NCBI GenBank assembly: GCA_037441565.1
Contig: JBBIRW010000007.1
Coordinates: forward strand, 43,297-107,296
Direction of reading: 5' to 3'
DNA: 64,000 nt
Source of the DNA: Deltaproteobacteria bacterium
Lineage (GTDB): Bacteria > Desulfobacterota > JBBIRW01
The notes beneath the pieces are model-generated. The model saw nothing but the letters and a program-made list of their open reading frames with translations, searched no databases and was not told the origin of the DNA. The position numbers were made by a program, and so were the translations under genes. Shown one piece after another: positions 27,427-50,138 of this stretch (within the stretch, counting starts at the first letter, position 1; every line of letters begins with the position of its first letter).

Positions 27427-28236
27427 TTGGAGATGCGAATAGTATTTTTGCGAAGAATCTTTGCCTTCTTAGGAAAATATCTGCCCATAATAACTATTCT
27501 GTTAATCTCTTCCACATATCCGTTAAAGGCACATACAGATGCGATGGAAGAGAGGAAAGAGGTAATTATAGAGGATAGAACAGGTAAATTTATCCCTCTT
27601 GATCTGGATTTTACCGATGAGAATGGGAAGGTTGTTTCGATCAAGGAACTCTTTAAGAAGCCGGTGATACTTTCTCCTGTTTACTTCAGCTGTCCCAATG
27701 TTTGCAATCTCCTTCTTGAAGAGATTGCCCGTCTTATTGATAAGATGGAAGCAGAACCAGGAAGGGACTACTCCATAATAACATTTAGTTTTGATGAAAA
27801 TGATAAGCCGGAAAAGGCACTTGAAAAAAAGAGGATTTTTCAAAAGATCATCAAGAAAAAAATTCCTGATGATTCATGGAAATTCCTCACAGGAGATAGA
27901 GAATCAATTAAAAGACTCACCGATGCAATCGGGTTTAATTTCAAAAGAAAGGGCGATGAATTTATACATCCTGTTTCACTGGTTGTTCTTTCAAGTGACG
28001 GTAAGATTATCCGTTATGTTCCTGGAAAGGCACTCCTTCCATTCGATCTGAAAATGGCTATTGCGGAGGCATCTGAAGGAAGAACGGGGGCAACTATAAA
28101 TAAAGTGCTTCTTCTCTGCTACAGTTATGATCCCCAAGGCAGGAGATACGTGCTTAATATAACAAGGATTGGAGGTGTAATTATACTACTTTCACTTGCT
28201 GGATTCTCAATATTTCTTCTGAGAAACAGGAGTTAA
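27427..28236 (+). CDS. SCO1/SenC-family copper chaperone (thioredoxin-like, CxxxC)
   Basis: 269 aa; signal peptide, thioredoxin-like domain with CPNVC, conserved C-terminal YDPQGRRYV segment followed by a TM helix. Confidence 0.8.
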   Translation: MEMRIVFLRRIFAFLGKYLPIITILLISSTYPLKAHTDAMEERKEVIIEDRTGKFIPLDLDFTDENGKVVSIKELFKKPVILSPVYFSCPNVCNLLLEEIARLIDKMEAEPGRDYSIITFSFDENDKPEKALEKKRIFQKIIKKKIPDDSWKFLTGDRESIKRLTDAIGFNFKRKGDEFIHPVSLVVLSSDGKIIRYVPGKALLPFDLKMAIAEASEGRTGATINKVLLLCYSYDPQGRRYVLNITRIGGVIILLSLAGFSIFLLRNRS

Positions 28237-28238
28237 TT

Positions 28239-30774: not shown

Positions 30775-30782
30775 GGTTAATT

Positions 30783-31391: not shown

Positions 31392-31394
31392 GGA

Positions 31395-32705: not shown

Positions 32706-32714
32706 GAGAGGAAT

Positions 32715-33227: not shown

Positions 33228-33239
33228 ACGGAGTGTTAT

Positions 33240-36056
33240 ATGAATAGAAGAAACTTCATGAAGTTCCTTGGCTTCATTACAGGATCAACATTTCTTTCAT
33301 CATGTGGCATTGACAAAGGTTTAAGAAAAATCATATCTTATGCCATACCACCAGAAAAGGAGATCATACCTGGTGAGCCATTATTTTTTAACACAACCTG
33401 CACAGAATGCCCTGCCCTCTGCGGGATTCAGGTTAAGGCATATGAAAAGATCTTTGATACGGAAAGGGGTATCTACCCTGTAAAGCTTGAAGGTATACCG
33501 GATCATCCCATCAATTATGGCACACTATGTATAAGGGGTCAGGCATCCATAACACGACTCTACAATCCCCATCGTATAAAAGATCCCTTAATTAAGGAAA
33601 GGGATGGAGTTTTCAGATCGATAAGCTGGGATCAAGCATTCCAGACCATAATTTCAGAAATCGAAAAACATAAAGCCGAGAAAAGATATAACTTCTTCAT
33701 TTCATCAAGAACAACGGGTTCCCTCTCATTACTTATTGATGAATTCTGTCACGAATTCAATATAAAGAGACTTCCGGAATTTGAAATATATAATTATTCT
33801 GCAATCAGAAAAGCAAACTCATTCCTTTTCGGAAAATATTCAATACCTCATTACAACATAAAGGACGCTGATTTTCTTTTAACAATGGGTGCTGATATTT
33901 TTGAGACTTTTATCAGTCCTGTTTCACACGCAGTTCAATTCTCTATTGCACGGAAAAACAATAATCTAAAGTGGTTTCATGTTGAACCACATCTTTCATT
34001 AACAGGAATATGTTCTGATAAAAGATTTACAATCAATCCTGGAACAGAAATATATCTTCTTATTTATATCCTGACTTCTATTCAAAAAAGAAAAATAAGC
34101 AGCAACATTCCTGCTTCAGTTGGTCAATTAATTCCCTCTCTGCCTTTGGATATTCTGAAAGAAAAAACAGGGCTAAAAGAGGAAGAAATCCTTCTCATAA
34201 GGGATGCTTATCTTAATTCAAAAAGACCCCTCATTATAACAGGTGGCGTCTCAACCAGAAGTGGCAGTGGATTCGAAGTGGCTGTTCTCTCAGGATTAAT
34301 CAATTGGGCTTCCGGATCTATCGGTAGCCTTGTTGATTTCAGCAGAGAAGAGAACTACTTAAGGGTAGGAACAATAGAGGAATTTGTTAATTTCCTTAAA
34401 ACAATTGATGAGAATAACACAGGTTTGCTCTTTCTCCTTAAAACAGATCCTGTTTCCATCTTTCCTCAGCATCTTGGAGTTAAAGAAAAACTCATCAGGG
34501 CGAGATTTAAGGTCTCCCTTTCGGACTCATTCAATGAGACAACAAAAATTTGTGATCTTATCCTCCCCCTTTCTCACTCTCTTGAATCGTGGGGAGATGC
34601 AAATCCAAGAAGAGGACTTGTTAATCTCATCCAGCCTGCAACAAAAACAATTTTCAATACAAAATCGCATGGTGACATAATTATCGAGATTATGAAAAGA
34701 AAGGGAAAAGTTGTTTCTGAAGATTTTAAATCCTTTGTTATGAGTAATTATCAGAAAAGATATGGAAAAGATTCATTAAATATGTTTATTGAAAAAGGCT
34801 TTCATGAAGAAAACCCCTCCCCTGTAAGGGTATCATTCAACGAAGAGAATGCGCAACTGTTCTTGAGGAAGCTCAAATATCCTGAAGCTATGAAAACTCC
34901 CCTTCTTATTCTTTCTCCTTCGTTGAGGTTTTTTGATGGAAGATCTTTTGATCTTGAACTCTTAAAAGAAATCCCGGATCCTTTAAGCACGATATCCTAT
35001 GGGAGCTGGATCTCCCTTTCAGAGGAGACAGCAAAAAAATTGAACATCTCAGAAAGGGATGAGCTCGAAATTACTAAGGACCGATGGTCTATAAGAGTTC
35101 CTGCAAAGATTCAGAAAGGTATAGGAAAGGATATATTTATCGTCCAGATCGGAGGACCGATAAATTATAGTGGCATGACCGATCCCAGAAGCGGTGAAAT
35201 CCTCTCATACATTGAAGGTATAAATATAAGAAAAACGGGAAAGAATGTTTCCATACCAATCCTTTCAGGCTCAATGTCACAGGAAGGAAGGGGTATAATA
35301 CCTTATCCCATACATAGAACTGAAAATAATAAAAAACACAAAGAGAGTTTATATCCTGAACATAAACATGAAAATTACCGATGGGCTATGACTATAGATC
35401 TCGATCTCTGTATAGGATGCTCGGCATGTGTTGCTGCATGTTATATTGAGAACAATGTTCCTATTGTAGGGATTGATGAACATCTCAAAGGAAGAGAGAT
35501 GTCCTGGATCAGGGTCGAGCCATTTTATGATGAAAAGGATGGAATAAGATTCCTGCTCATGCTATGCCAGCAATGTGATTATGCTCCGTGTGAACCTGTC
35601 TGCCCTGTTTATGCAACATATCATAATCCTGAAGGAATAAATGCACAGGTCTATAACAGATGTGTTGGAACAAGGTACTGCTCAAATAACTGTCCGTATA
35701 AGGTCAGAAGATTTAACTGGTATCCTCATGAATGGGAATTCCCAAGGGACAGGATGTTAAATCCTGAGGTATCAGTAAGACAGGCAGGCGTAATGGAAAA
35801 GTGCACATTCTGCATACAACGTATAAGAAGAGCACATGATATCGCAAAGGATGAAGGCAGGTCCATAAGGGATGGTGAAGTAATGCCTGCATGTGCCCAG
35901 ACATGCCCCACCCGTGCAATTACATTTGGTAATATTCTTGATAAGAATTCATCTGTATATAAGCTTTCAAAGTCCGACCGTTCATATCGCATCTTTGAGC
36001 AACTCGGAACAGAACCATCGATATATTATCTTGGAAAGAGGAGAGGAGATGAATAA
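33240..36056 (+). CDS. actB: Alternative Complex III subunit ActB (molybdopterin-oxidoreductase-like + FeS domains)
   Basis: 938 aa; twin-arginine signal (RRNFMKF), large molybdopterin-like domain, C-terminal 4Fe-4S ferredoxin domains (CIGCSACVAAC, CQQCDYAPCEPVCP). Confidence 0.85.
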   Translation: MNRRNFMKFLGFITGSTFLSSCGIDKGLRKIISYAIPPEKEIIPGEPLFFNTTCTECPALCGIQVKAYEKIFDTERGIYPVKLEGIPDHPINYGTLCIRGQASITRLYNPHRIKDPLIKERDGVFRSISWDQAFQTIISEIEKHKAEKRYNFFISSRTTGSLSLLIDEFCHEFNIKRLPEFEIYNYSAIRKANSFLFGKYSIPHYNIKDADFLLTMGADIFETFISPVSHAVQFSIARKNNNLKWFHVEPHLSLTGICSDKRFTINPGTEIYLLIYILTSIQKRKISSNIPASVGQLIPSLPLDILKEKTGLKEEEILLIRDAYLNSKRPLIITGGVSTRSGSGFEVAVLSGLINWASGSIGSLVDFSREENYLRVGTIEEFVNFLKTIDENNTGLLFLLKTDPVSIFPQHLGVKEKLIRARFKVSLSDSFNETTKICDLILPLSHSLESWGDANPRRGLVNLIQPATKTIFNTKSHGDIIIEIMKRKGKVVSEDFKSFVMSNYQKRYGKDSLNMFIEKGFHEENPSPVRVSFNEENAQLFLRKLKYPEAMKTPLLILSPSLRFFDGRSFDLELLKEIPDPLSTISYGSWISLSEETAKKLNISERDELEITKDRWSIRVPAKIQKGIGKDIFIVQIGGPINYSGMTDPRSGEILSYIEGINIRKTGKNVSIPILSGSMSQEGRGIIPYPIHRTENNKKHKESLYPEHKHENYRWAMTIDLDLCIGCSACVAACYIENNVPIVGIDEHLKGREMSWIRVEPFYDEKDGIRFLLMLCQQCDYAPCEPVCPVYATYHNPEGINAQVYNRCVGTRYCSNNCPYKVRRFNWYPHEWEFPRDRMLNPEVSVRQAGVMEKCTFCIQRIRRAHDIAKDEGRSIRDGEVMPACAQTCPTRAITFGNILDKNSSVYKLSKSDRSYRIFEQLGTEPSIYYLGKRRGDE

Positions 36057-37362
36057 GGCGATTTCCAAAGCCATTGAGTTTCGTTACCGGATTGAAAAGG
36101 ATGTTCTCGCTGCAATGAAGAAACCCCATATCCAGTACTGGATCTTCCTTTTTATCTCAGTCATCTTGTTTGTAACTGGCATGTCCCTCTGGTACTACCA
36201 GATAAAAACAGGGATGGGTGTCTCCGGTAAAACGCATCCTGTCGGATGGTACATGTATATAACAAATTTTGTATTCTGGGTTGGAATCGCCCATTCAGGA
36301 ACACTTATATCAGCTGTTCTTTTTCTATTCCGGGCAGGATTCAGGAGCAGTTTCAACAGATCTGCAGAAGCAATGACCGTCTTTGCCATTATGACTGCAG
36401 GGCTCTTCCCCATAATACATCTTGGAAGACCATGGCTTTTCTACTGGTTGCTTCCATACCCGAATGAGAGGCTACTCTGGGTTAACTTCAGATCACCGCT
36501 TATATGGGATGTCTTCGCTGTTGGGACATATTTTACGGTAAGTCTTATCTTCTTTTATGTTGGTATGATTCCCGATCTTGCCATTGCAAGGAGATATGCA
36601 ACAGGATGGAAGAGGCGCCTGTACTCCTTCCTTTCACTCGGATGGCAGGGAACACCGGATCAATGGAGGCACTATAACAGACTATATATGTTTCTTGCAT
36701 CATTTGCAACTCCGCTTGTTGTTTCAGTCCACTCTGTTGTTTCATGGGATTTCGCTATGAGCATTATCCCAGGATGGCATACAACCATATTTGCCCCATA
36801 TTTTGTTGCAGGTGCTATATTTTCTGGAACAGCGATGGTAATAACGCTTGTTGTTCCAATGAGAAAGTTTTTTTCCCTTGAAAAATATATAACTTTAGAT
36901 CACTTTGATAGCATCGCTAAAATATTACTTCTTACATCTCTCATAGTGAGCTATTCATATATCGTGGAATTCTCCATGGCATTTTATGGTGGAAATATAT
37001 TCGAAATGGAAGTATTCAGGTACAGGGCATTTGGTGATTTCTGGATATTCTTCGCCATAATGATTATATGCAACTCCATTATTCCCCTCTTTCTATTCAT
37101 AAGAAAGCTAAGAAGAAATATAAAATTTCTTTTCATATCATCCCTTTTTGTTAATGTGGGTATGTGGATGGAAAGATTCGTAATCATAGTTACTTCCCTT
37201 TCCAGAGACTTTGATCCTTACGCATGGGGACTTCCATCATTCAGCACTGTTGCTATAGGAATCACGCTTGGCAGTTTCGGAATGTTTTTCATGCTTTTTC
37301 TTATATTTGTAAAGGTCCTTCCAATCCTTTCCATTACAGAATTAAAAGAGGTTCACGAATGA
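36049..37362 (+). CDS. actC: Alternative Complex III subunit ActC (NrfD/PsrC-like membrane subunit)
   Basis: Polytopic NrfD-like protein; start set at internal ATG 36049 (MNKAISKA), 8-nt overlap with actB; the track ORF begins at 35893 inside actB. Confidence 0.8.
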   Translation: MNKAISKAIEFRYRIEKDVLAAMKKPHIQYWIFLFISVILFVTGMSLWYYQIKTGMGVSGKTHPVGWYMYITNFVFWVGIAHSGTLISAVLFLFRAGFRSSFNRSAEAMTVFAIMTAGLFPIIHLGRPWLFYWLLPYPNERLLWVNFRSPLIWDVFAVGTYFTVSLIFFYVGMIPDLAIARRYATGWKRRLYSFLSLGWQGTPDQWRHYNRLYMFLASFATPLVVSVHSVVSWDFAMSIIPGWHTTIFAPYFVAGAIFSGTAMVITLVVPMRKFFSLEKYITLDHFDSIAKILLLTSLIVSYSYIVEFSMAFYGGNIFEMEVFRYRAFGDFWIFFAIMIICNSIIPLFLFIRKLRRNIKFLFISSLFVNVGMWMERFVIIVTSLSRDFDPYAWGLPSFSTVAIGITLGSFGMFFMLFLIFVKVLPILSITELKEVHE

Positions 37363-37814
37363 AAAAGGAATATCTGTTTGAAGACAAACACGAATTTGTC
37401 GAAAAATTGAAAGATCTTTTAAAAAAGGGGGTGCCTGTTGATCGAATGCAAATATACCTCCCTTTCCCTGTCGAAGAAGTAGAAGAGATTCTTGGAAGAC
37501 CGGTTAGTAAACTGAATTTCATTACCCTTCTCGGTGCAATCACTGGAACTATTACGGGCTTCGGATTCACAGCTTATACAGTTTTAAGCTGGCCTCTTAT
37601 AACGGGAGGAAAGCCACTGATATCCATCCCTGCATTTGTTATTATAGCATTTGAATTGACAATTCTTTTTGGATCGATCACATCGTTTCTCGGATTCCTT
37701 TCACTCTCACGCCTCCCTGATATTAGAAGGATTCTGAATCCCATGGAATTTGACAACAGATTTGCAATAGTGATAGATGATGGAGAAGATGATGGAAAAA
37801 GGGATGAGGATTAA
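37359..37814 (+). CDS. actD: Alternative Complex III subunit ActD-like small membrane protein
   Basis: About 151 aa from internal ATG 37359 (MKKEYLFEDK), ATGA overlap with actC; one or two TM helices; position matches ActD. Confidence 0.6.
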   Translation: MKKEYLFEDKHEFVEKLKDLLKKGVPVDRMQIYLPFPVEEVEEILGRPVSKLNFITLLGAITGTITGFGFTAYTVLSWPLITGGKPLISIPAFVIIAFELTILFGSITSFLGFLSLSRLPDIRRILNPMEFDNRFAIVIDDGEDDGKRDED

Positions 37815-38811
37815 CCATTACTTCTTATATCTCTTTATTGGTGGATTTTTTATTGTTGCTGTTGAGTTTTTTGCAGGAATAACAAAGGGTTCACTTCTCT
37901 TCACTCTTTCGTATTGGATTGCCATCACTCATGGCTGCATTGCACTTGTTACAGCAGCTAATATTGCAAAGGCTAAATGGATAACTCCACTAAAGAGATA
38001 CCTTCTTTCCGTTTACCCGTTGCTATTGCTTCACTCAATCCTTTTTCTTTTTGTTACTTATGAGCTGGATATATATCCATGGGTTAAAAGTGAAGGATTA
38101 TGGTTAAACAGGCCATTCTTTATAGCAAGAAACTTCTTCCTGCTCTTTCTTTCCTTTTTATCTGCACGAAAATTCTCCAAGGAATCATTAATTGATAGTG
38201 AAAGAAAAAACATCTATGGCTCAATTTATATCGCATTCTTTGTTGCATCACAATCAATGATTGCATTCGACTGGATAATGTCTCTCGAATATCCCTGGTA
38301 CAGCACACTCTTTGGAGGTTATTTTTTCATTGAATCCATATACTCCGGTATTGCAATTTCAGGGATTGTATGTCTATTTCTTATGAGAAAAACTGGGAGC
38401 CAAATCAGTGAAGACCTGGTCAAGACTTTGAGGGATATTGCTACACTAATTTTCGGGTTCAGCTTACTCTGGGCAGGGCTTTTCTATGCGCAGTTCCTTG
38501 TTATCTGGTATGGAAACATTCCTGAGGAGGTAAGCTTTCTGTTTGTAAGGACTAAATTATCACCTTACCGGGAAATCTCGCTTGTTATACTCCCCTCACT
38601 ATTCTTCTTCCCCTTTCTAACACTCCTTTCAAGAAAGACAAAAACGATCCCATTGATCGTCTCAATTATATCGGTATCGATACTTATGGGTATATTTCTT
38701 GAAAGACTGCTATTCCTCCTTCCATCCGTTAAGCTAAATCCTGTAAAGGTAATCTCTCAATCAATCATTATGGCAGCACTGATTATTCTAACGATCAAGA
38801 GAAATAATTAG
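37777..38811 (+). CDS. actF: Alternative Complex III subunit ActF-like polytopic membrane protein
   Basis: 344 aa, about 9 TM helices, immediately after actD; assigned by position and topology only. Confidence 0.55.
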   Translation: MMEKMMEKGMRINHYFLYLFIGGFFIVAVEFFAGITKGSLLFTLSYWIAITHGCIALVTAANIAKAKWITPLKRYLLSVYPLLLLHSILFLFVTYELDIYPWVKSEGLWLNRPFFIARNFFLLFLSFLSARKFSKESLIDSERKNIYGSIYIAFFVASQSMIAFDWIMSLEYPWYSTLFGGYFFIESIYSGIAISGIVCLFLMRKTGSQISEDLVKTLRDIATLIFGFSLLWAGLFYAQFLVIWYGNIPEEVSFLFVRTKLSPYREISLVILPSLFFFPFLTLLSRKTKTIPLIVSIISVSILMGIFLERLLFLLPSVKLNPVKVISQSIIMAALIILTIKRNN

Positions 38812-38824
38812 ATTTTGTGCTTGT

Positions 38825-40708
38825 TTATGTCCCTTTCACAACGAGAATGGGAATATCACCTATATCATGTTGAACAGCAGAAACTGTTGAACCGTATATC
38901 CAGTCTTTTATGTGCTTGTGACCGTGACTCCCAAGAACAAGGAGATCCAGATTCTCTTCTTTTGCTATTTTTACAACCCCTTTTGCTGCATTTCCAAATC
39001 CTATTCGGAAACTTGCCCTTATTCCCTGTGCCCTGATCTTTTCTGAAAGTTTTATTAGGTAATCCTCGTCCCCTGTTCTCTCCCTATCCTCCGCTGTTCC
39101 GCCCCACACCTGAGCAGTTGCACTCTCAACAATATGAATGAGAACAATCTCTGCATCGTATCTCAGTGCAAGGGCAAGTGCATGTTTGAGTATCTTTTGG
39201 TCCGTTTCCTTCACCTCAAGAGCAACCCCTATCTTCCCATATCCAGTGTCCTCCTGAATGGATGGTATCACGGGTTCCGGTACAGAAGTTGGTCTCCTTT
39301 CTAATAATTTCTTGATAAATGGTCCAAATCCCATATACCCTAATAATAGCATCAAAAACGCACCGATTGGAATTACTATAAAATCAACCCACATAGCTGT
39401 CATCCTCCATTCAGACACCGTCTCCCAGACAAGCCAGAGGTTAAGACCTATGATAAAAAGTGCAACAAGCCATGAGAGGATTCTTACCCATAAAGGGTTG
39501 GCAAATTTACCCATCCATTCACGATCACTTGTAAACTGGATAAGGGGGACAATTGCAAAGGGAAGCTGCAGAGATAGAATTACCTGGCTCAGTATGAGAA
39601 GCCTGTATGTACCATGGCTTCCGCTTATTGCAATAACAATAACTGCGGGGATGACAGCAAGTAATCGAGAAATGAGCCTTCTTGCCCATGGCTGAATCTT
39701 TATCCGAATAAATCCCTCCATTACAATCTGCCCTGCTAGTGTTCCTGTGAGTGTTGAAGATTGACCTGCAGCAAGAAGTGCAACAGCAAAGGCAGTGGAG
39801 GCGAGACCTGTTCCCAGCAGTGGTGAGAGAAGTTCGTGCGCCTGCTGAATTTCAACCACCTGAATGCCTCGAGAATAAAAAACAGAAGATGAGAGAACAA
39901 GTATTGCTGAATTCACAAAGAAAGCGGCATTGAGGGCAATAACAGTATCTATAAGATTAAAGCGCGCTGCCGCCTGGATACCCTTGTCCGTTCGCTCAAC
40001 TGCCCTGCTCTGAACAAGCGCTGAATGAAGGTAAAGGTTGTGCGGCATAACAGTTGCTCCCAGCATGCCAAGTGCAACGTAAAGGCTATCACTATCAATT
40101 GTGGGAATAAAACCACCCATAATTGATCTGAAATCAGGTTTAGCAAGAAAGATCTCAACTACAAAACAACAACCTACAATAAATATCAAACCGAGGATTA
40201 TTCCTTCAAATTTGCGAATACCATATCGTTGAATCAGAAGCAGAAGCATTGTATCAAGAGCTGTTAAACTTACACCGATTATAAGTGGAATTCCAAATAA
40301 GAGATTTAAACCTATCGCTGTTCCAAGGACTTCAGCGAGATCGCATGCGGCTATCGCAAGCTCACAGATGATCCACAGAGGATAGTATACAAAAGGCGGA
40401 TATGCTTCACGACATGCCTGAGCGAGATCGCATCTTGCAACAAGACCCAGACGGGCGGAAAGCGTTTGCAGGAGAACAGCCATCAGATTGCTCGCAAGTA
40501 GAACCCATATGAGCCTGTATCCAAACCTTGCTCCCCCTTCGAGATCCGTCGCCCAGTTACCCGGATCCATGTATCCCACAGAAACAAGATATGCAGGACC
40601 AAGGAAAGCAAAGAGGCGCTTCCACCATTTCCAGTAGTGTGGAATCTTCACTGATTCGTAAATTTCAGGAAGGGATACGGTTTCTGTCTTATTGAATTTC
40701 GACCACAT
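38825..40708 (-). CDS. mntH: NRAMP-family divalent metal transporter with C-terminal UspA domain
   Basis: 627 aa; NRAMP motifs (DPGNWATDLEGG, GATVMPHNLYLHS), then a cytoplasmic universal-stress-protein domain (LVLGSHGH...IPILVV). Confidence 0.8.
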   Translation of the reverse strand: MWSKFNKTETVSLPEIYESVKIPHYWKWWKRLFAFLGPAYLVSVGYMDPGNWATDLEGGARFGYRLIWVLLASNLMAVLLQTLSARLGLVARCDLAQACREAYPPFVYYPLWIICELAIAACDLAEVLGTAIGLNLLFGIPLIIGVSLTALDTMLLLLIQRYGIRKFEGIILGLIFIVGCCFVVEIFLAKPDFRSIMGGFIPTIDSDSLYVALGMLGATVMPHNLYLHSALVQSRAVERTDKGIQAAARFNLIDTVIALNAAFFVNSAILVLSSSVFYSRGIQVVEIQQAHELLSPLLGTGLASTAFAVALLAAGQSSTLTGTLAGQIVMEGFIRIKIQPWARRLISRLLAVIPAVIVIAISGSHGTYRLLILSQVILSLQLPFAIVPLIQFTSDREWMGKFANPLWVRILSWLVALFIIGLNLWLVWETVSEWRMTAMWVDFIVIPIGAFLMLLLGYMGFGPFIKKLLERRPTSVPEPVIPSIQEDTGYGKIGVALEVKETDQKILKHALALALRYDAEIVLIHIVESATAQVWGGTAEDRERTGDEDYLIKLSEKIRAQGIRASFRIGFGNAAKGVVKIAKEENLDLLVLGSHGHKHIKDWIYGSTVSAVQHDIGDIPILVVKGT

Positions 40709-40734: not shown

Positions 40735-42048
40735 CTAAACATCAAGAATAACACGCGCTGTCCATCCATTATTATCTTTCCTCACCTCAAGCATGTGCAG
40801 GGTCACTGCCTTCACATCAAGATGAAGTATATGTTTTTCCGGATCGATCCTCTCCCCTGCTGCCTTCATCCTCGCCAGCCAGTTATCACCCTTCCTTCCG
40901 ATTTTCACATTAAACTCTCCAAAGATCAGTTTTTCTGTATCTTTGAAAAAGATTATTTCCTGAAGAAGATTAAAAAGGAGAAGATCCAGTTCTTCAGCCT
41001 CAATCTCTATCAGCCTTCTTTCTTTAAGATCGATTGTGCCTGTTTCAAGTATCATGATATTTGTCGTTGCAAGCGCAGAGGAAATAAAAAGTTCCTCAAT
41101 CGTATCACCCTTTGCCTCAAATGCTACATCGGCTGTAACAAAATCTTCAAGAAATCTGTACTTAAATCTCAATGTCATGTTCTCTAACTGGGAAATAACC
41201 CGATCCTTTATCTCATAAGCTCGATCGCCAATAAATACAAGACGCGTTTCTTCCGATTCAAATTCTTCAAAATCCCATCGATCAGAGACATAATTGAACA
41301 GGTAGGAGCCATCGGGAAATTTTACAAATCCCTTTGCCCTGTATATCTTTCCAGAAAAATCATTTAGCATCTCTTCAAATCTTTCCCTCTGGATTGTCCC
41401 TTTTGTACAGAAAGTAAAGTAATCCATGCTATGTGAGTGATGAACAGCATTTGATAAATATCTTTCTACTCCCATCCCGGATAAAAGCTCTGTATCTATA
41501 TTGCAGAATGAAGTTCTGAAAAGGGTCGCCCTTTTGTTAATCTCTTTTACCTTCTCCTCAACCCCTAAGAGATCTTCTTCATCGACCAGGTCTATCTTGT
41601 TTATCAGAATTACATCGGCTGATTCAATCTGTATCCTCCCTGTATAGCCTGTTTCCGGAAATCTAATCATGGCATCAGCATCAACAACAGTAACTACTGT
41701 ATCAAGCTTCACCATTGTTAGTGCCTCACCTATAATCTCTATGAGTGAATCTGGCTCTGCAAGACCTGTGGTTTCAACAAAAATTATATCAGGCCTTATT
41801 TCATTTACTATCTCCTCAATTGCCGCCTCAAATTCTCCCGATAGTGAACAACATACGCATCCTCCGGCAAGTTCAGCCATCCTTATATTTTTCCCCTCAA
41901 GAACCTTGCCATCTATGGGTATCTCTCCAAATTCGTTTACCACAATGGCGATCTTTTTCCTTGAATCCCTTATGATATTCCTCAGAAGGGTTGTCTTACC
42001 ACTGCCGAGATATCCTGTTATCAAAATAAGAGGTGTTTTTGTGATCAT
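40735..42048 (-). CDS. COG0523/CobW-family GTPase (putative metallochaperone) with extended C-terminus
   Basis: 437 aa; P-loop GYLGSGKTT, GCVCC metal-binding motif, CobW_C-like region plus extra C-terminal sequence. Confidence 0.8.
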   Translation of the reverse strand: MITKTPLILITGYLGSGKTTLLRNIIRDSRKKIAIVVNEFGEIPIDGKVLEGKNIRMAELAGGCVCCSLSGEFEAAIEEIVNEIRPDIIFVETTGLAEPDSLIEIIGEALTMVKLDTVVTVVDADAMIRFPETGYTGRIQIESADVILINKIDLVDEEDLLGVEEKVKEINKRATLFRTSFCNIDTELLSGMGVERYLSNAVHHSHSMDYFTFCTKGTIQRERFEEMLNDFSGKIYRAKGFVKFPDGSYLFNYVSDRWDFEEFESEETRLVFIGDRAYEIKDRVISQLENMTLRFKYRFLEDFVTADVAFEAKGDTIEELFISSALATTNIMILETGTIDLKERRLIEIEAEELDLLLFNLLQEIIFFKDTEKLIFGEFNVKIGRKGDNWLARMKAAGERIDPEKHILHLDVKAVTLHMLEVRKDNNGWTARVILDV

Positions 42049-42108: not shown

Positions 42109-43611
42109 TTAACCCTTAATGTTTCCAACCGGAATGAATCTCACAACCTTTTTTGAAAGTCCTGCAAGCTCTGTGGTATCGACTACTTCATCTATGTTTT
42201 TGTAAGCAGCACCAGCCTCCTCAGCAAGACCAGAAAAGGACGCCGTTCTTACATAAATACCCGTCTCCTCCATCTTCCTCTGGAGAGCCTTTCCATCAAA
42301 TAGTTTCCTTGCCTTCGTTCTGCTCATTGTCCTTCCACTACCATGTGCTGTTGAAAAGAAACTCTTTGTTCCCGAACCTATCCCCGCAAGTAGATAGCTC
42401 CCCGTCTCCATACTTCCGCCAATAATAACAGGCTGACCTGTTTCCTTATATATACCAGGCAATCCTTCCATTCCAGGAGCAAAGGCTCGTGTAGCTCCCT
42501 TTCTGTGAACAATAAGCTGCATCTCCTTTCCATTAACAAAATGTTTTTCAAGCTTTGCTGTATTGTGTGAAACATCGTAAACCATTTGCATCCCGAGCTT
42601 CCTTGCATCCTCCTTGAATACCTTTTCAAAAACCTCTCTTATTCTATGGGTTATTACCTGTCTGTTTGCAAATGACATATTTATCCCGCACTTCATGGCG
42701 GCGAAATAATCCTGACCTTCAGGGGAATCAAAGGGTGCACAGGCAAGTTCCCTATCCCTCACACTAATTCCATATTTCTTCTCCATAACCTTAAGAAAAA
42801 TTTGAAGATAATCAGTTGCAACCTGATGCCCGAATCCACGACTACCACAGTGAAACATCACTACAACCTGATCAGGTATTGATATACCGAAGATCTTTGC
42901 CAGTCTTTCATCGTATATGTTTTCCGGTTTCGCTATCTGAATCTCAAGATAGTGATTGCCTGATCCAAGGGTTCCAATTTGATTTATGCCCCTTTCAACT
43001 GCCTTCTCACTGATCTTTGATGGATCCGCACCCTGAATACACCCCCCTTCTTCTGTCCTTTCAAGATCCTCCTCCCAGCCAAAACCCTTTCTTACACACC
43101 ACCTTGCCCCTTCAGAAAGGACCTCCATGAATTCATTTCTATTAAGTTTCAGAAATCCGGTGCTTCCCACACCACATGGAACCCTCTCAAATAATAGATC
43201 AACAATCTCCTTGATCCTTGGTTTAATATCATTAAATGTCAGGGAAGTAAGGACAAGCCTCATTCCACAGTTTATATCAAAACCAATACCACCCGGTGAT
43301 ATTACACCTACCTTGGCATCCATTGCAGCAACACCACCGATGGGAAATCCATAGCCGGAATGTGCATCTGGCATGCAGAGGGCGTAATTTACAATACCCG
43401 GAAGTGTTGCTACATTTGTTATCTGTTCAAAGACCTGCCAGTCCATCTCGCTTATCAGCTTCTCTGTTCCATATATCCTGGCTGGAGCTCGCATCCCATC
43501 CTTGAACTCCTCAGGGATCTCATAGATAAAATCGCTTATCCTTCTGAATGGTATCGGATGTGCCATAAAGACCTCCCTCAGTAAATAACTTAAACCCTCA
43601 TATGTGGACAT
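42109..43611 (-). CDS. rtcB: RNA-splicing ligase RtcB
   Basis: 500 aa ORF; conserved RtcB segments (CMPDAHSGYGFPIGGV, HCGSRGFGHQ); start may be the internal ATG near 43566. Confidence 0.85.
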   Translation of the reverse strand: MSTYEGLSYLLREVFMAHPIPFRRISDFIYEIPEEFKDGMRAPARIYGTEKLISEMDWQVFEQITNVATLPGIVNYALCMPDAHSGYGFPIGGVAAMDAKVGVISPGGIGFDINCGMRLVLTSLTFNDIKPRIKEIVDLLFERVPCGVGSTGFLKLNRNEFMEVLSEGARWCVRKGFGWEEDLERTEEGGCIQGADPSKISEKAVERGINQIGTLGSGNHYLEIQIAKPENIYDERLAKIFGISIPDQVVVMFHCGSRGFGHQVATDYLQIFLKVMEKKYGISVRDRELACAPFDSPEGQDYFAAMKCGINMSFANRQVITHRIREVFEKVFKEDARKLGMQMVYDVSHNTAKLEKHFVNGKEMQLIVHRKGATRAFAPGMEGLPGIYKETGQPVIIGGSMETGSYLLAGIGSGTKSFFSTAHGSGRTMSRTKARKLFDGKALQRKMEETGIYVRTASFSGLAEEAGAAYKNIDEVVDTTELAGLSKKVVRFIPVGNIKG

Positions 43612-44692
43612 TCAAGCATCCCTATTTTCTGGTATATTAGTGAGTATGATAGTGATAGATGGAAGCTATGGTGAAGGTGGAGGGCAGATCCTGAGAACCG
43701 CACTCAGTATCTCCTGTATAACAGGAAAACCCTTCAGAATATTTAACATAAGGAAGGGGAGGGAAAAACCAGGCCTCATGCCTCAGCATCTCGCCTCCAT
43801 AATGGCAGCAAGGGAGATCTCTGATGCAGATATTGAAGGAGCTTTCATAGGCTCAACAGAACTGATCTTTTCACCCCGAAGGATAAAGGCAGGAGAGTAC
43901 TCATTTAATATAGGTACCGCTGGATCAACAATACTGCTTCTTCAGACCCTCATACCTCCTCTTATCTTTGCTGGAGATCTATCAAGGATCTTAATAAAGG
44001 GCGGAACGCATGTGCCTTTCAGTCCCATTTACGATTATACGGAGAAAGTGTTTGCAGAGTTCTTAAACATGTTAGGAATCAGGATCAGTTTAAGGATCAG
44101 ATCATACGGCTTCTACCCTAAAGGAGGTGGTTCAATAGAGGCTGAAATATATCCTGTAGAGTCGATCTTACCAATAGAGATTCTCGAGAAGGGGAGGTTA
44201 AAAAGGATCGGAGGCTGTTCATCCGTTGCCAATCTCCCCATATCCATTGCAGAGAGACAGCGCACATCCGCTATTAAATATATGAAAGAAAGACTCGGTG
44301 ATGAAGTTCCCATTCATCTTGAAACTATGAATGTTCCAACCCCATCTGAGGGAACATTTCTATTCCTCAAGTGCGAATTTGATCTTTCTATTGCAGGTTT
44401 CTCTTCCCTTGGAAGGAGGGGAAAGAGTGCGGAAAAGGTCGGTGAGGAAGCTGCCTCAGGGCTGATATCATTTCTCAGAACTGATGGTGCAATTGATCCC
44501 CATCTTGCTGACCAGATAGTTCTCTATCTCTCAATGGCCTCAGCTCCATCCCGATTCACTGTATCCTCCATAACGGATCACCTGTTAACGAATCTCTACA
44601 CAATAAGGCATTTCTTTAAAATTAGATACTCCGTTAATGGAGAAAAGGGAGGAGTTGGCCTGATTGAAATAAATCCTGTTCTTCAAAATTAA
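43604..44692 (+). CDS. rtcA: RNA 3'-terminal phosphate cyclase RtcA
   Basis: 362 aa ORF; RtcA N-terminal motif ([19 protein letters not shown]); start may be the internal ATG near 43646. Confidence 0.8.
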
Positions 44693-45582
44693 AGATCGAT
44701 CAGCATGGAGAGGAATATCAATGAGAGATAAACTATCGAATATCTGAAAAGCGTCCTGTCAATTTTCTTTCCTGACAGTTTCATAAAAAAGATAACAAAA
44801 TATATTACATTGAGAAGAATAGAAACCCAGAGGTAAAATGATCCGCAAAATTCTAAAACGAATGGAAGTATGCTTGCCATTGAAAGAAGAACAAGATAGA
44901 TTAACATTAATTCTGATGTCTTCCTTTCGGATATAGCAGGCATTACAGGTATTCCTGCTTTTATATAATCATCTCTGTAGAGACTTGCAAATGACCAGAA
45001 GTGAAGAGGTTGCCAGATCAGGATAATCAGGAATAAAACAAACGCCTCAGCATCAATACCGTTCTTAACCGCAGCGCATCCTATAAGCGGTGGAAGGGCT
45101 CCCGCAATACCGCCAATCTCAGTAGCATGCGGAGTTTTTCTTTTTAGAAATCTTGTATAGAGAAAATAGTAGATGAATGCACCGATCATGGATAGAAATG
45201 CTGACAGTAAATTCACAAAAATGGATAGAAAAATGAATGATAGAATTATGAGAAGCATGCCGAATTTTGTTGCACTCCTTATATCAATTCTTCCGAGAGG
45301 TATTGGCCTGTTTTTTGTCCTTTCCATAACTGCATCTATATCTGCATCATAGCAGTTGTTTAATATTGTTGAGCCGGAGCAGCAAAGTGCAAGACCGGTT
45401 AATGTCCAGAACAGGAGCGATGTATTTATCGCCCCCTTTGATGCAATCCATATACTGGAAAAGGCTGTAATGAGCATAAGGAGTGTTATGCCAGGACCTG
45501 TTACTGAAATATAGTCCCGGAAAACACCCCTTCCAATGCTTTGAGAAACAATAACCCTACTTCTTAGCCCTTCCGTATTCAT
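44689..45582 (-). CDS. ctaB: protoheme IX farnesyltransferase (heme O synthase, UbiA family)
   Basis: UbiA-type polytopic protein with Asp-rich motif (NCYDADIDAVMERTKNRP); start set at internal ATG 45582 to limit overlap with coxI. Confidence 0.8.
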   Translation of the reverse strand: MNTEGLRSRVIVSQSIGRGVFRDYISVTGPGITLLMLITAFSSIWIASKGAINTSLLFWTLTGLALCCSGSTILNNCYDADIDAVMERTKNRPIPLGRIDIRSATKFGMLLIILSFIFLSIFVNLLSAFLSMIGAFIYYFLYTRFLKRKTPHATEIGGIAGALPPLIGCAAVKNGIDAEAFVLFLIILIWQPLHFWSFASLYRDDYIKAGIPVMPAISERKTSELMLIYLVLLSMASILPFVLEFCGSFYLWVSILLNVIYFVIFFMKLSGKKIDRTLFRYSIVYLSLIFLSMLIDL

Positions 45583-47134
45583 AAGGTCCTGATGTAACAA
45601 CAGGTATCCTTTCGAAATTATAACATGGCGGTGGGGAAGGAATCGTCCATTCAAGCGATAGTGCATTCCATGGATTATCAGACGCCTTTTCCCCCACAAA
45701 CGCTGAACGAACAACATTGAAAACGGAAAGCAGGAAACCAGCTATCAGTATATACCCTCCGATAACTGTTACCCTGAATAGCACAGTAAACTCTGGAGGA
45801 TAGCTCCAGTACCTCCTCGGCATGCCCATGAGTCCCAGCTGGAAAAGGGGTATGAAAGCGAAAAGGGAACCGATCATGATCAGCCAGAATGAAAGCCTTG
45901 CCATGCGCTCATTATACATGCGCCCTGTGAATTTTGGAAACCAGAAATAAATACCCGCAAAAGCCACAGATGTCATGGCAAGTGATAGAACCATATGGAA
46001 ATGGGCAACAACCCAGTATGTATCATGAACATGGAGGTCAATTGCAATAAGCCCATTTCCAACGCCCGTAACACCGCCGATAACAAAAAGACTTATAAAA
46101 CCTATCACATAGAGCATAGGCGCCCTGAATTCTATTGCTCCCCTATGCATCGTTCCAAGCCAGTTGAATACCTTTATACCCGTTGGAACAGCAATGAGTA
46201 TTGTAAGCATCGATTGCATGATCCTTGCCCAATCCTCTACACCTTTTGTGAATAGATGATGAATCCATACGGAAAACCCGAGGATGGTAATTGACATAAT
46301 TGCAATGACCATACTCCTGTATCCAAATATCTTTTTCCTTGAAAAGGTTGATACAATTTCCGATACAATTCCAAATGCAGGAAGCGCAACAACATAAACA
46401 GCAGGGTGTCCGTAAAACCAGAATAGATGCTGATAAAGCATCGGAGATCCACCCATTGAAGGATTATAGAAATTTGTTCCCAAGTATCGATCAAAAAGAA
46501 GGAGTGTTACAGCTCCCGCAAGAACAGGTATTCCAAAAAGCTGAATTATAAAAGCACTGAGCATCCCCCATATAGCGAGATTGAGTCTTCCCCATGTCAT
46601 ACCTGGTGCCCTCATACAGATTATAGTTGTTATAAAGTTCACAGCAGATGCGAGGGCAGATCCACCGAGAAGATGAACGGAGAAAACATAAAGCGAAGTA
46701 TTCGCATCCGTGATTATTGAATACGGTGGATAACCTGTCCAGCCGATATCGATCCTTCCAGGTGTTACGAGTGCAAGAACTGCCATAACCGTTGCACCTG
46801 CAAAAAGCCAGTAGCTCAGGGCATTGAGCCTTGGAAATGCAACATCCTTTGCACCTATCATAAGCGGGATAAGGAGATTGGCAAAGAAACCTGTAAAAAC
46901 TGGAATCATCCACCATAAAATCATTGCTGCTCCATGAATTGTGAAGAATACATTGTATGTTTTTGCACCTATTATATCCATTCCTGGGGACCACTGTTCT
47001 GCCTTAATAAAGATGGCAAGGATAAGTCCGAGCACAAAAGCAGTAAGACTTGTTATAAGATAGAGAACTGCAATCCTTTTATGGTCTGTTGTAAATATCC
47101 ATTCCTTTATACTAAAGCCCTTTTTTTCTGACAT
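45557..47134 (-). CDS. ctaD: cytochrome c oxidase subunit I (second copy)
   Basis: 525 aa; GHPAVYVVALP and WIHHLF motifs; 12 TM. Confidence 0.9.
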   Translation of the reverse strand: MSEKKGFSIKEWIFTTDHKRIAVLYLITSLTAFVLGLILAIFIKAEQWSPGMDIIGAKTYNVFFTIHGAAMILWWMIPVFTGFFANLLIPLMIGAKDVAFPRLNALSYWLFAGATVMAVLALVTPGRIDIGWTGYPPYSIITDANTSLYVFSVHLLGGSALASAVNFITTIICMRAPGMTWGRLNLAIWGMLSAFIIQLFGIPVLAGAVTLLLFDRYLGTNFYNPSMGGSPMLYQHLFWFYGHPAVYVVALPAFGIVSEIVSTFSRKKIFGYRSMVIAIMSITILGFSVWIHHLFTKGVEDWARIMQSMLTILIAVPTGIKVFNWLGTMHRGAIEFRAPMLYVIGFISLFVIGGVTGVGNGLIAIDLHVHDTYWVVAHFHMVLSLAMTSVAFAGIYFWFPKFTGRMYNERMARLSFWLIMIGSLFAFIPLFQLGLMGMPRRYWSYPPEFTVLFRVTVIGGYILIAGFLLSVFNVVRSAFVGEKASDNPWNALSLEWTIPSPPPCYNFERIPVVTSGPYEYGRAKK

Positions 47135-47150: not shown

Positions 47151-48926
47151 TTATTTCAGCGATTTAAGATATGCGATTATGGAATATATCTGTCTTTCGG
47201 AAAGCCTGTATGGTGGCATTGCTGCAGGATAACCTTTAACAATCTTCTCTGAGGGATAAAGTATTGAGTGTTCTATATACTCCTCATCAACCTTCATGCT
47301 TCCACCATCCTCGAACCTTGTTTCCCTCCCAAATATTCCTTTAAATGTTGGACCTGTTGATTCCTCCCCCGTAACTGTGTGACATCCCAGACATCCCAGG
47401 ATCTCAACAAGCCTCCTTCCCTCATTGATATCGGGTAAAGCTTCTCCCTCACTCTTCGCCTTTGATATCCATGCATTGAAATCCTCCCTCTTCATTGCTA
47501 TCACCTTTGCAATCATCATAGAATGACCATTTCCGCAGAACTCCGTGCAGAATGCCCTGTATAATCCTGGCTTTTCCGCATTAAACCACAGATACGTTAT
47601 CCTTCCCGGAATTGCTTCCTCCTGAATATGGAAATCTGGAAGGAAAAATCCATGAAGCACATCCCTGCTTGTAAGGCTGATCCTTACAGGAATTCCGGCA
47701 GGAATAACAATCTCATTTACCCCTTTTATTCCTTCAGGGTAGGTAACATTCCATCCCCACATGAACCCCTCGACGCTGATCTCATATGCATTGGATGGAA
47801 CACCTCTGAATTTCTGATAAATACTCCATGTCTGGATCCCTAAGAAAATAACAATCACAAGAGGAATAACAGTCCATATAATTTCAACAAGTGAATTCCC
47901 CTCAATGTAATCCCCTTCTTCCCTTCCTCTTCCCTTTCTGTAACGGATGCAAATATAAATTAACGGAATCGTTACAACTAACCAGACGGCGAACATAAGT
48001 ATAAGATAGATACCGAAGTGCTGATCCCACAGCCTCGATGGATTGCTTGCATCAGATGCGAGTGCATCTTTTCCGGAAATGAAAGTTATGAAAGGGATCA
48101 GTAGCAGTAACTCTGATCTCCTTTTCTTTACATAAATAACAATGGAGAGCAACCCGGTAATAACCCCCATAAAAATTCCAGCTGCAATAAAAAGAAGCGG
48201 AATGTTTATCACATATGTTCGTGATCCTGGATCGTATTTATAGCATGCAAATGTAATCATGCTCGCTATCGAAACACTTCCAGAAATCCCCTTCATTGAT
48301 TCAAGTATTGCTAACCGAACGTTGAATGGATCAGGTTTTGATCCATAAAGATATCTTGTTATCCTTCCTTCGGGAGAGATAAATATGTAAACAGATGGAT
48401 GTACAAACATTCCATCTTGAATTGAATAGAAGAACCGATATCCCGTGCTCTCGACCAGCTTATTTATATTTTCATCTGTCGTTGTTGCAAATTTCCATTG
48501 ATTAAATACTTCTGATCTCTTTTTATTAAAAACTCTTTCATAGAATTCTAATGCTTTTGATGGTGTATCCTTGCTGTTAAAGCTCAAAATAAGAACATGG
48601 TAATCTTTTCCATTTTTTAAATCCCTTATCTCATTCAATGCATCAAAAAGTCCCTCAACAAGAAGCGGGCAGATATGTGGACAATCATAATAAACAAGCG
48701 TAAGGATCAGGACTTTGCCCTTGAATTGCGAAATAGAAAATTCTTTCCTGCTTTTATCCGTAAAAGTTATTTCTGCAACGGATCTTCCGAGATGTTTTTC
48801 TTCTTCTATCTTTAAAATCGCCGGATTGAAATCCGAGGTTGATATAGTAGGAATCTTTGCCTCTAAATCAGCATTAAATGAAAGTATAAAGAAGATCAAA
48901 ATAACCAATCTTCCAATCGATACCAT
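47151..48926 (-). CDS. SCO1/SenC domain fused to cytochrome c oxidase subunit II with C-terminal cytochrome c domain
   Basis: 591-aa single frame: signal peptide, SCO1-like thioredoxin domain (CPHICP, YDPGSRTYV + TM), two CoxII TM helices, cupredoxin domain with CuA site (FCTEFCGNGHSMM), C-terminal heme c motif CLGCH. Confidence 0.8.
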   Translation of the reverse strand: MVSIGRLVILIFFILSFNADLEAKIPTISTSDFNPAILKIEEEKHLGRSVAEITFTDKSRKEFSISQFKGKVLILTLVYYDCPHICPLLVEGLFDALNEIRDLKNGKDYHVLILSFNSKDTPSKALEFYERVFNKKRSEVFNQWKFATTTDENINKLVESTGYRFFYSIQDGMFVHPSVYIFISPEGRITRYLYGSKPDPFNVRLAILESMKGISGSVSIASMITFACYKYDPGSRTYVINIPLLFIAAGIFMGVITGLLSIVIYVKKRRSELLLLIPFITFISGKDALASDASNPSRLWDQHFGIYLILMFAVWLVVTIPLIYICIRYRKGRGREEGDYIEGNSLVEIIWTVIPLVIVIFLGIQTWSIYQKFRGVPSNAYEISVEGFMWGWNVTYPEGIKGVNEIVIPAGIPVRISLTSRDVLHGFFLPDFHIQEEAIPGRITYLWFNAEKPGLYRAFCTEFCGNGHSMMIAKVIAMKREDFNAWISKAKSEGEALPDINEGRRLVEILGCLGCHTVTGEESTGPTFKGIFGRETRFEDGGSMKVDEEYIEHSILYPSEKIVKGYPAAMPPYRLSERQIYSIIAYLKSLK

Positions 48927-48939: not shown

Positions 48940-49683
48940 TCAAGCTTTTAGAAAGCTATACGGGAGGATATAAACCAATGAAAGAATGAGAAGCCATAGA
49001 CCATCAACAAAATGCCAGTAGTATCCGCAAATCCTTACAACACTTCTACGAATTCCTCCAGCTCCTTTTCTAATTGAAAGAAGCAGAATATAAAGCTGAA
49101 ACAAAACACCCACAAGAACATGGGAGCCGTGAAGACCTGTTATCAGATAAAAATATGTTCCGTAGGAGTTACTTGTAATAGTTAATCCTTCAGATATAAG
49201 CCTGCTCCATTCCCTTGCCTGTCCCATAAGAAAAAGAAGGCCAAGCACAATTGTCAAGGAAAGCCATTGCTTCATGTATTTCCTTTCAGCCATCTGAATT
49301 GTTACACTCGAGGAAATAAGAATGACTGTCAGGATCATTGCAAAACCAAGTGGTGGAATGTCTGCTGGTATTCCTGGAGATATCCATTCCCCTTTGGGAA
49401 GCATGCTGTATAAGTATGCGCTTAAAACTCCGCTAAAGAGTGCGATCTCAGATAGGATAAAAACCACCATTGCCGTAGTGCTGATCCTTTCTTCTGAATC
49501 CGATTCGAATACCTCGGATACCCATCCTGTGAGGCTTATGATTGTGCCCGCAGCACCCAGACAGGCTGTAAAAAGGCCTCCGACAGGAATCTTCCACTGA
49601 AATGAGATCATAAAACCCATCATGATGAGGAATGATGAAAAAGCTGTAAAAAATGGCCAGATGCTTACAAATTGAGTATGCAT
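48940..49683 (-). CDS. ctaE: cytochrome c oxidase subunit III (second copy)
   Basis: 247 aa polytopic protein; subunit-III C-terminal pattern (GLHGSHVLVGV, YYWHFVDGLWLL). Confidence 0.75.
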   Translation of the reverse strand: MHTQFVSIWPFFTAFSSFLIMMGFMISFQWKIPVGGLFTACLGAAGTIISLTGWVSEVFESDSEERISTTAMVVFILSEIALFSGVLSAYLYSMLPKGEWISPGIPADIPPLGFAMILTVILISSSVTIQMAERKYMKQWLSLTIVLGLLFLMGQAREWSRLISEGLTITSNSYGTYFYLITGLHGSHVLVGVLFQLYILLLSIRKGAGGIRRSVVRICGYYWHFVDGLWLLILSLVYILPYSFLKA

Positions 49684-49736: not shown

Positions 49737-50138
49737 TTATATTCTATTAGAAAGCATTTTGAAGTTTATCCTGCTAAGTCTTCCTTCCATTTCCTTCCTC
49801 ATTTCAACCCATACTGGATGAACAGAACAGCTGTTGCTAAGAGTGCACAATCTTTTGTTGATAGCACACCTGTTAAATGCAACGGGGCCATCTATTGCCT
49901 GGATTACATCCAGAAGATTTATCTCCTCCAGCCTTCTTGCCAGCTGAAAACCCCCCTTTATGCCACGGTATGATCTCACCAGCCCTACCCTTGTAAGTTT
50001 TTGCAGAATCTTTGAAAGAAAATCCCTGGGGATCCTTTTCGCCCTTGCAATCTCCTTCGCCATTGTTATCTTTCCCTCATTCTCAGCAAGGTATAACACA
50101 CATCTGATAGCGTAATCTGCCTGCCTTGTAATCTGCAT
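49737..50138 (-). CDS. Rrf2-family transcriptional regulator (IscR/NsrR-like, three conserved Cys)
   Basis: wHTH N-terminus (ADYAIRCVLYLA) and Cys triad (CAINKRLCTLSNSC); start moved to ATG 50138 because the track start at 50150 is a TTG. Confidence 0.8.
   Translation of the reverse strand: MQITRQADYAIRCVLYLAENEGKITMAKEIARAKRIPRDFLSKILQKLTRVGLVRSYRGIKGGFQLARRLEEINLLDVIQAIDGPVAFNRCAINKRLCTLSNSCSVHPVWVEMRKEMEGRLSRINFKMLSNRI

Follow-up and report, generated by a model that had tools for sequence, protein, structure and literature searches.

A SCO-type copper chaperone fused in frame to a CuA-bearing oxidase subunit II, with a predicted signal peptide retained at the join

The window analysed here, a 64-kb stretch of DNA (64,000 nucleotides of contig JBBIRW010000007.1), carries on its minus strand one open reading frame (ORF) at 47151..48926 in which a SCO1/SenC-type copper chaperone is joined to subunit II of a haem-copper oxidase (CoxII) and its class-I cytochrome c domain. 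The ORF is a genuine, selectively maintained fusion of neighbouring sco and coxB/ctaC genes, found in a few uncultured anaerobic bacteria. A preliminary description of the window had reported a continuous 591-codon frame, and the ORF list bears this out (ATG start, 591 codons plus stop), adding the strand, which had been left unstated. What had not been noticed is that the join is a predicted complete signal-peptidase-I substrate retained from CoxII. We consider cleavage at this position, after Ala290, somewhat favoured (probability roughly 0.55), in which case the gene would encode a chaperone-client polyprotein and not a permanent fusion.

Four Pfam domains were matched by the fused protein, each above its gathering score and in the order originally claimed: SCO1-SenC (PF02630) at residues 54-170 (28.5 bits versus a cut-off of 22.8), COX2_TM at 306-366, COX2 at 403-472 and Cytochrom_C (PF00034) at 502-591. 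The NCBIfam equivalog model for CoxB, TIGR02866, scored 190.5 bits against a cut-off of 147.7. A frame of this length in sequence of 41% G+C, with four ordered domain matches, is far beyond chance. All the motifs quoted in the preliminary description were located in the frame, namely CPHICP (residues 82-87), YDPGSRTYV (231-239, followed by a hydrophobic helix of about 24 residues), FCTEFCGNGHSMM (459-471) and CLGCH (512-516). Residues called invariant below are identical in the six known fused proteins, and all positions within the ORF are on the minus strand.

The chain begins with a predicted signal peptide, residues 1-23 (48858..48926; MVSIGRLVILIFFILSFNADLEA/K, with slashes here and below marking predicted cuts), which comprises a hydrophobic segment at 1-21 and, in the AlphaFold2 (AF2) model, a helix at 4-17 with low confidence at 18-31. 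The SCO thioredoxin-fold domain follows at residues ~40-215 (48282..48809). That the N-terminal region is SCO-like, as had been proposed, was supported both by sequence and by predicted fold: besides the PF02630 match, phmmer searches of the PDB with the SCO half retrieved 3me7 (Aquifex aq_2194, E = 2.8e-17), BsSco (1on4/1xzo) and human SCO1 (2ggt), and the AF2 model of the domain, with a predicted local distance difference test (pLDDT) above 90, matched 3me7_A in Foldseek with a TM-score of 0.87 and a root-mean-square deviation of 2.3. CPHICP (48666..48683) is the SCO CxxxC copper/redox motif, in which C82, P83, C86 and P87 are invariant; CxxxC is present in 196 of 197 SCO family relatives. 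The third SCO copper ligand, His176 (48399..48401), lies 90 residues past C86, is likewise invariant and corresponds in alignments to the His conserved in 3me7 and BsSco. Close to the membrane face stands a conserved Cys/Tyr motif, CYKYDPGSRTY (residues 228-238, 48213..48245; C228, Y229, K230, Y231, D232 and Y238 invariant), where AF2 places a beta hairpin (residues 229-240). The SCO part ends in a C-terminal membrane anchor, residues ~242-266 (48129..48203; hydrophobic segment 237-267, AF2 helix 242-268), the counterpart of the C-terminal transmembrane segment in free-standing SCO proteins. Hydrophobicity thus predicts a signal peptide plus a C-terminal anchor for the SCO part, whereas the classical SCO anchor is N-terminal.

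The CoxII part comprises two transmembrane helices, TM1 at residues ~303-328 (47943..48020) and TM2 at ~345-369 (47820..47894), both recognised by Pfam, hydrophobicity and AF2, and a CuA cupredoxin domain at residues ~380-487 (47466..47789; Pfam COX2, TIGR02866 and Foldseek). The CuA pattern, a His followed by CxExCGxxHxxM, is complete, with invariant ligands H425, C460, E462, C464, H468 and M471 at 47514-47654. Foldseek matched this part to subunit II of many oxidases, the best being 2yev_B (E = 1e-22, 31% identity). The class-I cytochrome c domain occupies residues 499-591 (47154..47432), has the subunit IIc of Thermus caa3 as its best structural match, and carries the haem motif C512-L-G-C-H516 at 47379-47393 together with the axial ligand Met570; C512, C515, H516 and M570 are invariant. 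The AF2 model of the whole protein had a mean pLDDT of 85.9 and a predicted template modelling score (pTM) of 0.54.

Since every source is a metagenome assembly and some labels of the metagenome-assembled genomes (MAGs) are plainly wrong, we considered whether the frame could stem from a sequencing or assembly frameshift, or from a recent loss of a stop codon in a gene on its way to becoming a pseudogene. An identical ORF is present in the NCBI MAG GCA_037446715.1 and in the independent Logan assembly of SRR11582170. Database searches for orthologous fusions yielded five further full-length clusters (P0002-P0006, 587-591 aa) with 90, 73, 51, 50 and 48% identity, from other samples and in the same operon. 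Neither a stop nor a frameshift was seen at the join in eight independent assemblies or in the five diverged orthologues. The fused proteins fall into two clades, A (the window, L007 and L023) and B (P0004-6), which are about 50% identical to each other. Across all six, the SCO ligands C82, C86 and H176, the CuA ligands, the CxxCH motif and Met570 are conserved without exception. Within the clades the ratio of non-synonymous to synonymous substitution rates (dN/dS) was 0.08-0.24 for the SCO part and 0.09-0.10 for the CoxII part, so that both halves are under purifying selection. The recurrence in assemblies, the invariant functional residues and dN/dS far below 1 in both halves for practical purposes exclude a frameshift, a wrongly joined assembly and gene decay, and we regard an artefact as hardly credible.

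The join spans residues 267-290 (48057..48128) and consists of KKRR, SE, a 13-residue hydrophobic core (LLLLIPFITFISG) and KDALA, the predicted signal peptidase I cut falling between Ala290 and Ser291 (48057/48056). The fused protein accordingly has five hydrophobic segments, not four: the signal peptide, the SCO anchor, the join core, TM1 and TM2. The core measures 12-14 residues among the fusions, compared with about 24 for the three true transmembrane helices, and one study (PMC2120157) describes short hydrophobic cores as favouring cleavage and long ones anchoring. The join of the window (...YVKKRRSE-LLLLIPFITFISGKDALA/SD) aligns residue by residue with the N-terminal signal peptide of unfused CoxII (MKKGFWILVSVVLLFCLFSLAIA/GD), and the corresponding stretch in clade B reads ...YRKRKA-MKETTVVLFLILFFSSSAFA/EK. 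It has the features of a Sec signal peptide, with a basic n-region (KKRR), a core within 7-15 residues, A-L-A/S at the cut and no Pro at +1. Small or helix-breaking residues stand directly before AxA, and in each of the six fusions position -1 is Ala and position -3 either Ala or Val. The AF2 model has pLDDT below 50 at residues 270-276 and 283-290, and the dN/dS of the join (0.28-0.37) is the highest of the protein.

The origin of this arrangement can be read from close relatives of the operon, which have the same gene order (Rrf2, COX3, sco, coxII-c, COX1, ctaB) and in which sco and coxII are two genes. In these unfused relatives a sco gene of 272-280 aa lies directly upstream of a coxII-c gene of ~322-325 aa, with an ATGA or TAATG overlap. 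In L004, for example, the sco product ends in ...VYRKRKCLKTDQGGKI, its TGA stop codon overlaps the coxII ATG (ATGA), and the two Gly codons also serve as the Shine-Dalgarno sequence of coxII. The fused genes lack the last ~9 sco codons and the stop, and the basic cluster leads straight into the CoxII signal peptide. The ancestral state is thus two genes with overlapping stop and start, and the presence of such overlapping pairs in close relatives indicates that the fusion arose by loss of the sco tail and its stop codon.

Whether this happened once is less certain. In a neighbour-joining tree of concatenated SCO, CoxII and COX1 sequences, the fused clades were exclusive sisters in 1.8% of bootstraps and clade B grouped with unfused operons in 85%. 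A CoxII-only tree of 33 taxa placed the fused clades as successive branches below an unfused crown, with joint monophyly at 21%. The joins of the two clades are similar in length, and ATG or GTG stands at nearly the same place. There may have been either two independent fusions, or one fusion followed by one fission.

Remnants of the old coxII start bear on a further explanation, according to which CoxII would be made mainly by internal initiation at that site, the long product being a tolerated by-product. Clade B keeps the old ATG 3-4 nt after a Shine-Dalgarno-like AGGAG or AGGAAG, and L023 has a GTG at the old start site, 4 nt after AGGAGA. In the window and in L007, which is 90% identical to it, the old start site reads GAG and GGG, respectively, and no ATG, GTG or TTG is within reach of the Shine-Dalgarno-like AAGGAGA; yet the CoxII half is the most constrained part (dN/dS 0.09). 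Ribosomes translating sco would, moreover, read through in any case. At the join of the window no ATG, GTG or TTG was found, the in-frame codons past the basic loop being tca gag tta ctg cta ctg atc, and the CoxII of this oxidase can therefore only arise within the 591-residue product. We consider predominant internal initiation improbable as a general account; in clade B and L023 it may play some part, whereas in the window it does not.

For the 591-residue product we propose the following route. The N-terminal signal peptide would export the SCO domain to the periplasm, the C-terminal SCO helix would bring the chain back to the cytoplasm, where the KKRR loop would lie, and the retained CoxII signal peptide would re-export it; TM1 and TM2 would then leave both the CuA domain and the cytochrome c domain in the periplasm, where SCO also lies. 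A topology count by hydrophobic segments places all three domains on the periplasmic side. The SCO domain, through Cys82, Cys86 and His176, would deliver copper to the CuA site of the co-made chain, keep the CuA cysteines reduced, or both. Loading of the co-made CuA site is suggested by the established 1:1 ScoI.Cu2+.CoxB intermediate: Sco.Cu2+ and reduced apo-CoxB form a tight 1:1 complex as the first step of CuA assembly, after which Sco is displaced (PMC6669012). The fusion would guarantee 1:1 stoichiometry, with SCO entering the membrane at the same translocon as its client and immediately before it, which might be useful where copper is scarce, for instance in sulfidic habitats. Signal peptidase I would cut after Ala-Leu-Ala290, giving mature CoxII-c in the same form as in the unfused relatives, and SCO would be released beside nascent CoxII, held in the membrane by a helical hairpin. 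It is the retention of a complete signal-peptidase-I substrate at the join that makes us judge cleavage the likelier fate. The earlier statement that the gene covalently joins chaperone and client stands insofar as there is one open frame, but it may hold for the precursor only, the join retaining a textbook cleavable signal peptide.

If the join were left uncut, the former signal peptide and the SCO anchor would form an extra helical hairpin, and SCO would stay tethered to mature subunit II, where it could supply the solvent-exposed CuA site with copper, repair it or hold it in the reduced state. Such an outcome is in line with the single frame without an internal start in the window, the purifying selection on both halves and the topology count, which puts both periplasmic domains on the same side of the membrane. 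The oxidase family also tolerates joins of this kind, as exemplified by the cytochrome c on subunit II (2yev_B; PMC6696091), and the same SCO subfamily is joined to assembly factors elsewhere, as in the SURF1-SCO protein P0104. On the other hand, the join keeps all features of a cleavable signal peptide, including the invariant Ala at -1, in a fast-evolving stretch; its 13-residue core is short for a stable membrane span; and the established mechanism requires Sco to dissociate from CoxB before the second copper can enter (PMC6669012). An uncut product therefore appears to us the less probable outcome, though one with a substantial claim. Slightly more tentative still is the idea that SCO has become a permanent fourth module, a copper-loading or thiol-repair device beside CuA that was selected, possibly twice, in sulfide-exposed anaerobes. 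If true, this would be the first known case of a respiratory enzyme that keeps its metallochaperone as a built-in domain, and structural studies would gain a naturally occurring, stoichiometric Sco-CoxB pair.

Several points weigh against a processed polyprotein in which SCO serves its own client. That the chain is cleaved, binds copper and acts in cis is predicted from the sequence, and the AF2 model (pTM 0.54) places the two periplasmic domains relative to each other without confidence. The internal signal peptide follows a transmembrane helix after a loop of only 6 residues and may be poorly accessible to signal peptidase. As the overlapping genes of the relatives already give about 1:1 synthesis through translational coupling, the selective gain from fusing them is not obvious, and the fusion could be nearly neutral. 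The fused form is also rare, with six fused 90%-identity clusters versus more than 20 unfused clusters that are as close or closer. Finally, no PCuAC-type partner was found by motif in the 64-kb window, although 64 kb says little about the genome.

The rarity was evident in each search, all of which reach relatives only, such that unrelated SCO-COX2 fusions elsewhere would lie outside their reach. When 5.8 billion clusters were searched with a two-domain profile (A2), the six known fusions scored 700-738 bits and no further fusion came up; the next match, at 466 bits, covered CoxII only. In an exhaustive phmmer search with the SCO half as query, there was one fused representative among the best 150. 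A scan of GTDB species genomes came upon a single fused locus (L007), and at seven other loci sco and coxII lay side by side as two genes. The nearest relatives are labelled as Nitrospirae, Nitrospirota or Thermodesulfovibrionales MAGs, and the host lineage is related to Thermodesulfovibrionales (Nitrospirota). A partial copy of the fusion (P0193) is filed as 'Candidatus Aenigmatarchaeota archaeon' and the 90%-identical L007 as 'uncultured Thermodesulfobacteriota'. The conflicting taxonomic labels of MAGs with the fusion look like mis-binning or mislabelling.

One further candidate, a Steroidobacteraceae MAG (L014) in which a single tblastn match covered query residues 39-589, was rejected. 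Its long frame is an artefact of high G+C content, and the SCO-like part is encoded by a neighbouring gene of its own in a different frame. At this gammaproteobacterial locus (L014 3896-5646), a long-SCO gene directly precedes a gene for coxII-cytochrome c, and this adjacency indicates that the sco/coxII neighbourhood behind the fusion is not confined to Nitrospirota.

SCO-CoxII-cytochrome c is apparently an undescribed domain architecture of known families. The preliminary description had known of none like it, and no Sco-CoxII fusion was found in a full-text literature search or in reviews of oxidase assembly and copper handling, the Sco architecture survey of Banci et al. 2007 (J Proteome Res) being outside the coverage. 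The fused SCO part resembles SCO1/SenC/PrrC/YpmQ proteins (PF02630; BsSco, human SCO1, aq_2194) in its thioredoxin fold, its CxxxC with a distal His, its place in an oxidase operon and its predicted periplasmic, membrane-tethered location. It differs in belonging to a longer subfamily with a C-terminal anchor and an extra C[YF]x[YF][DN] motif, and in being continuous with CoxII; reviews describe SCO anchoring by an N-terminal helix or a lipid anchor only (PMC9145763, PMC7558416). The remainder resembles subunit IIc of caa3 oxidase (Thermus thermophilus, 2yev chain B), with two transmembrane helices, the full set of CuA ligands and a C-terminal class-I cytochrome c, to which the fused protein adds ~290 N-terminal residues (SCO, anchor and internalised signal peptide). 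At the operon level, in-operon SCO genes are typical of the A2-type 'CyoCAB'-order oxidase operons of anaerobes, where copper has been argued to be scarce (Degli Esposti et al. 2019, PMC6431628). The order COX3, SCO, COX2, COX1 is shared with those operons, but SCO is a separate gene there and part of the same polypeptide as COX2 here; the fusion takes the in-operon coupling of SCO one step further.

Two other natural fusions offer partial parallels. FbcH of Bradyrhizobium japonicum is reportedly a cytochrome b-c1 precursor that is cut at an internal signal peptide, the cleavage being said to have been shown experimentally by Thony-Meyer and colleagues in about 1989-1991. Both are bacterial respiratory membrane polyproteins (in the present case a putative one) with the signal peptide of the downstream partner as the junction, but FbcH joins two subunits of one enzyme, whereas the present protein combines an assembly factor with its client, and its cleavage is a prediction. 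A natural Sco-cytochrome c fusion of Pseudomonas putida, reportedly described by Banci and colleagues in about 2011, likewise joins a Sco domain to a redox partner domain; it is without CoxII and CuA, and the cytochrome c of the present fusion belongs to subunit II.

The contact between SCO and CoxII is transient, and its study required trapping of the intermediate in vitro (PMC6669012). A fused pair conserved down to 48% identity provides independent evolutionary confirmation of a direct 1:1 action of SCO on subunit II, and a ready-made natural construct with which the structure and kinetics of CuA assembly can be studied. Should it indeed be cut at the retained signal peptide, it would be a rare bacterial chaperone-client polyprotein processed by signal peptidase. 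No new pathway or functional link is opened, as the link between SCO and CoxII was already known. The Rosetta-stone pairing that had been drawn between the fusion and a free-standing sco gene is real in that the paralogue exists, at 27427..28236 on the plus strand, but it teaches nothing new, because the link is established and the genes are already adjacent and overlapping in the nearest relatives. Public records, where annotated, name the fused proteins only 'cytochrome c oxidase subunit II', and precomputed Pfam lists omit the SCO domain in three of the six fused clusters, so that a domain-architecture search would overlook these fusions.

The SCO part belongs to a long SCO subfamily that is predicted to be anchored by a C-terminal, not an N-terminal, helix and that has been little discussed. 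With the SCO half as query, phmmer found 2184 representatives at E <= 1e-10, with a median length of 278 aa. Among the sampled relatives (P0043-P0242), the C[YF]x[YF][DN] motif, with a third conserved Cys just before the anchor, was present in 191 of 197, and a transmembrane segment followed it in 188. The extension corresponds to fusion residues 196-266 (48129-48341), and no Pfam or NCBIfam model covers it. The subfamily contains other fusions, namely the SURF1-SCO protein mentioned above (Pfam SURF1 at residues 19-224) and a tandem SCO-SCO protein (P0081). In addition, P0117 and P0120 carry long His/Met/Asp-rich N-terminal extensions that resemble copper-binding tails.

The fused ORF lies within an operon on the minus strand, 13 nt after COX3 and 16 nt before COX1. 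COX3 (48940..49683, PF00510) is the first gene and has the same position in all related loci, COX1 (45557..47134, PF00115, 496 bits) contains the motif FWFYGHPAV, and the last gene (44689..45582, PF01040) encodes a haem O synthase of the UbiA family, CtaB, of 297 aa. The order COX3, (SCO-CoxII-cyt c), COX1, CtaB corresponds to a predicted caa3-type haem-copper oxidase. Upstream of the operon, at 49737..50138 on the same strand, is a gene for an Rrf2-family regulator (PF02082); such a gene stands directly upstream of COX3 in most fused and unfused relatives (L003, L004, L005, L023, L024 and L025, but not L006 or L026). Clade-B loci also have hemerythrin genes just downstream. The position of Rrf2 and the clade-B hemerythrins suggest control of the oxidase in response to oxygen, nitric oxide or the state of Fe-S clusters.

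A second oxidase cluster is located at 27427-38811 on the plus strand and comprises sco, coxI, coxIII, coxIV and a coxII without cytochrome c, followed by an alternative complex III cluster. Its first gene is the free-standing SCO paralogue (Pfam SCO1-SenC, 39.7 bits), which shares 33% identity with the N-terminal half of the fused protein (E = 3e-36) and lies, as had been reported, directly upstream of coxI (28239-29858). The COX1 of this cluster has the motif FWIYSHPAV in place of the FWFYGHPAV of the fused operon. Both COX1 proteins of the window lack the glutamate of the FGHPEV motif, which we take to be characteristic of A1-type oxidases. The Tyr-Ser pair is presumably a mark of A2-type oxidases, and Gly replaces this Ser in the COX1 of the fused operon. 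The alternative complex III cluster encodes a multihaem ActA-like protein, a molybdopterin/FeS ActB-like protein, an NrfD-like protein and ActD; the 344-aa ORF at 37777-38811 had no Pfam match. Between the oxidase and alternative complex III clusters, at 31395-32705, lies a gene for a 436-aa polytopic membrane protein in which only a C-terminal cytochrome c domain is recognisable.

Two other composite genes are present in the window. At 40735-42048 on the minus strand, a gene for a 437-aa protein combines a CobW/HypB/UreG-type GTPase (with CobW_C) with a C-terminal Archease domain, and it adjoins those for RtcB (42109-43611, minus) and the RNA 3'-phosphate cyclase RtcA (43604-44692, plus). Archease is a known activator of the RNA ligase RtcB, and the fusion of a metallochaperone-type GTPase to this RtcB cofactor could reflect metal (Mn/Zn) loading of RtcB. 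At 38825-40708, also on the minus strand, a gene encodes an Nramp (MntH-type) metal transporter with a universal stress protein (Usp) domain fused to its C-terminus.

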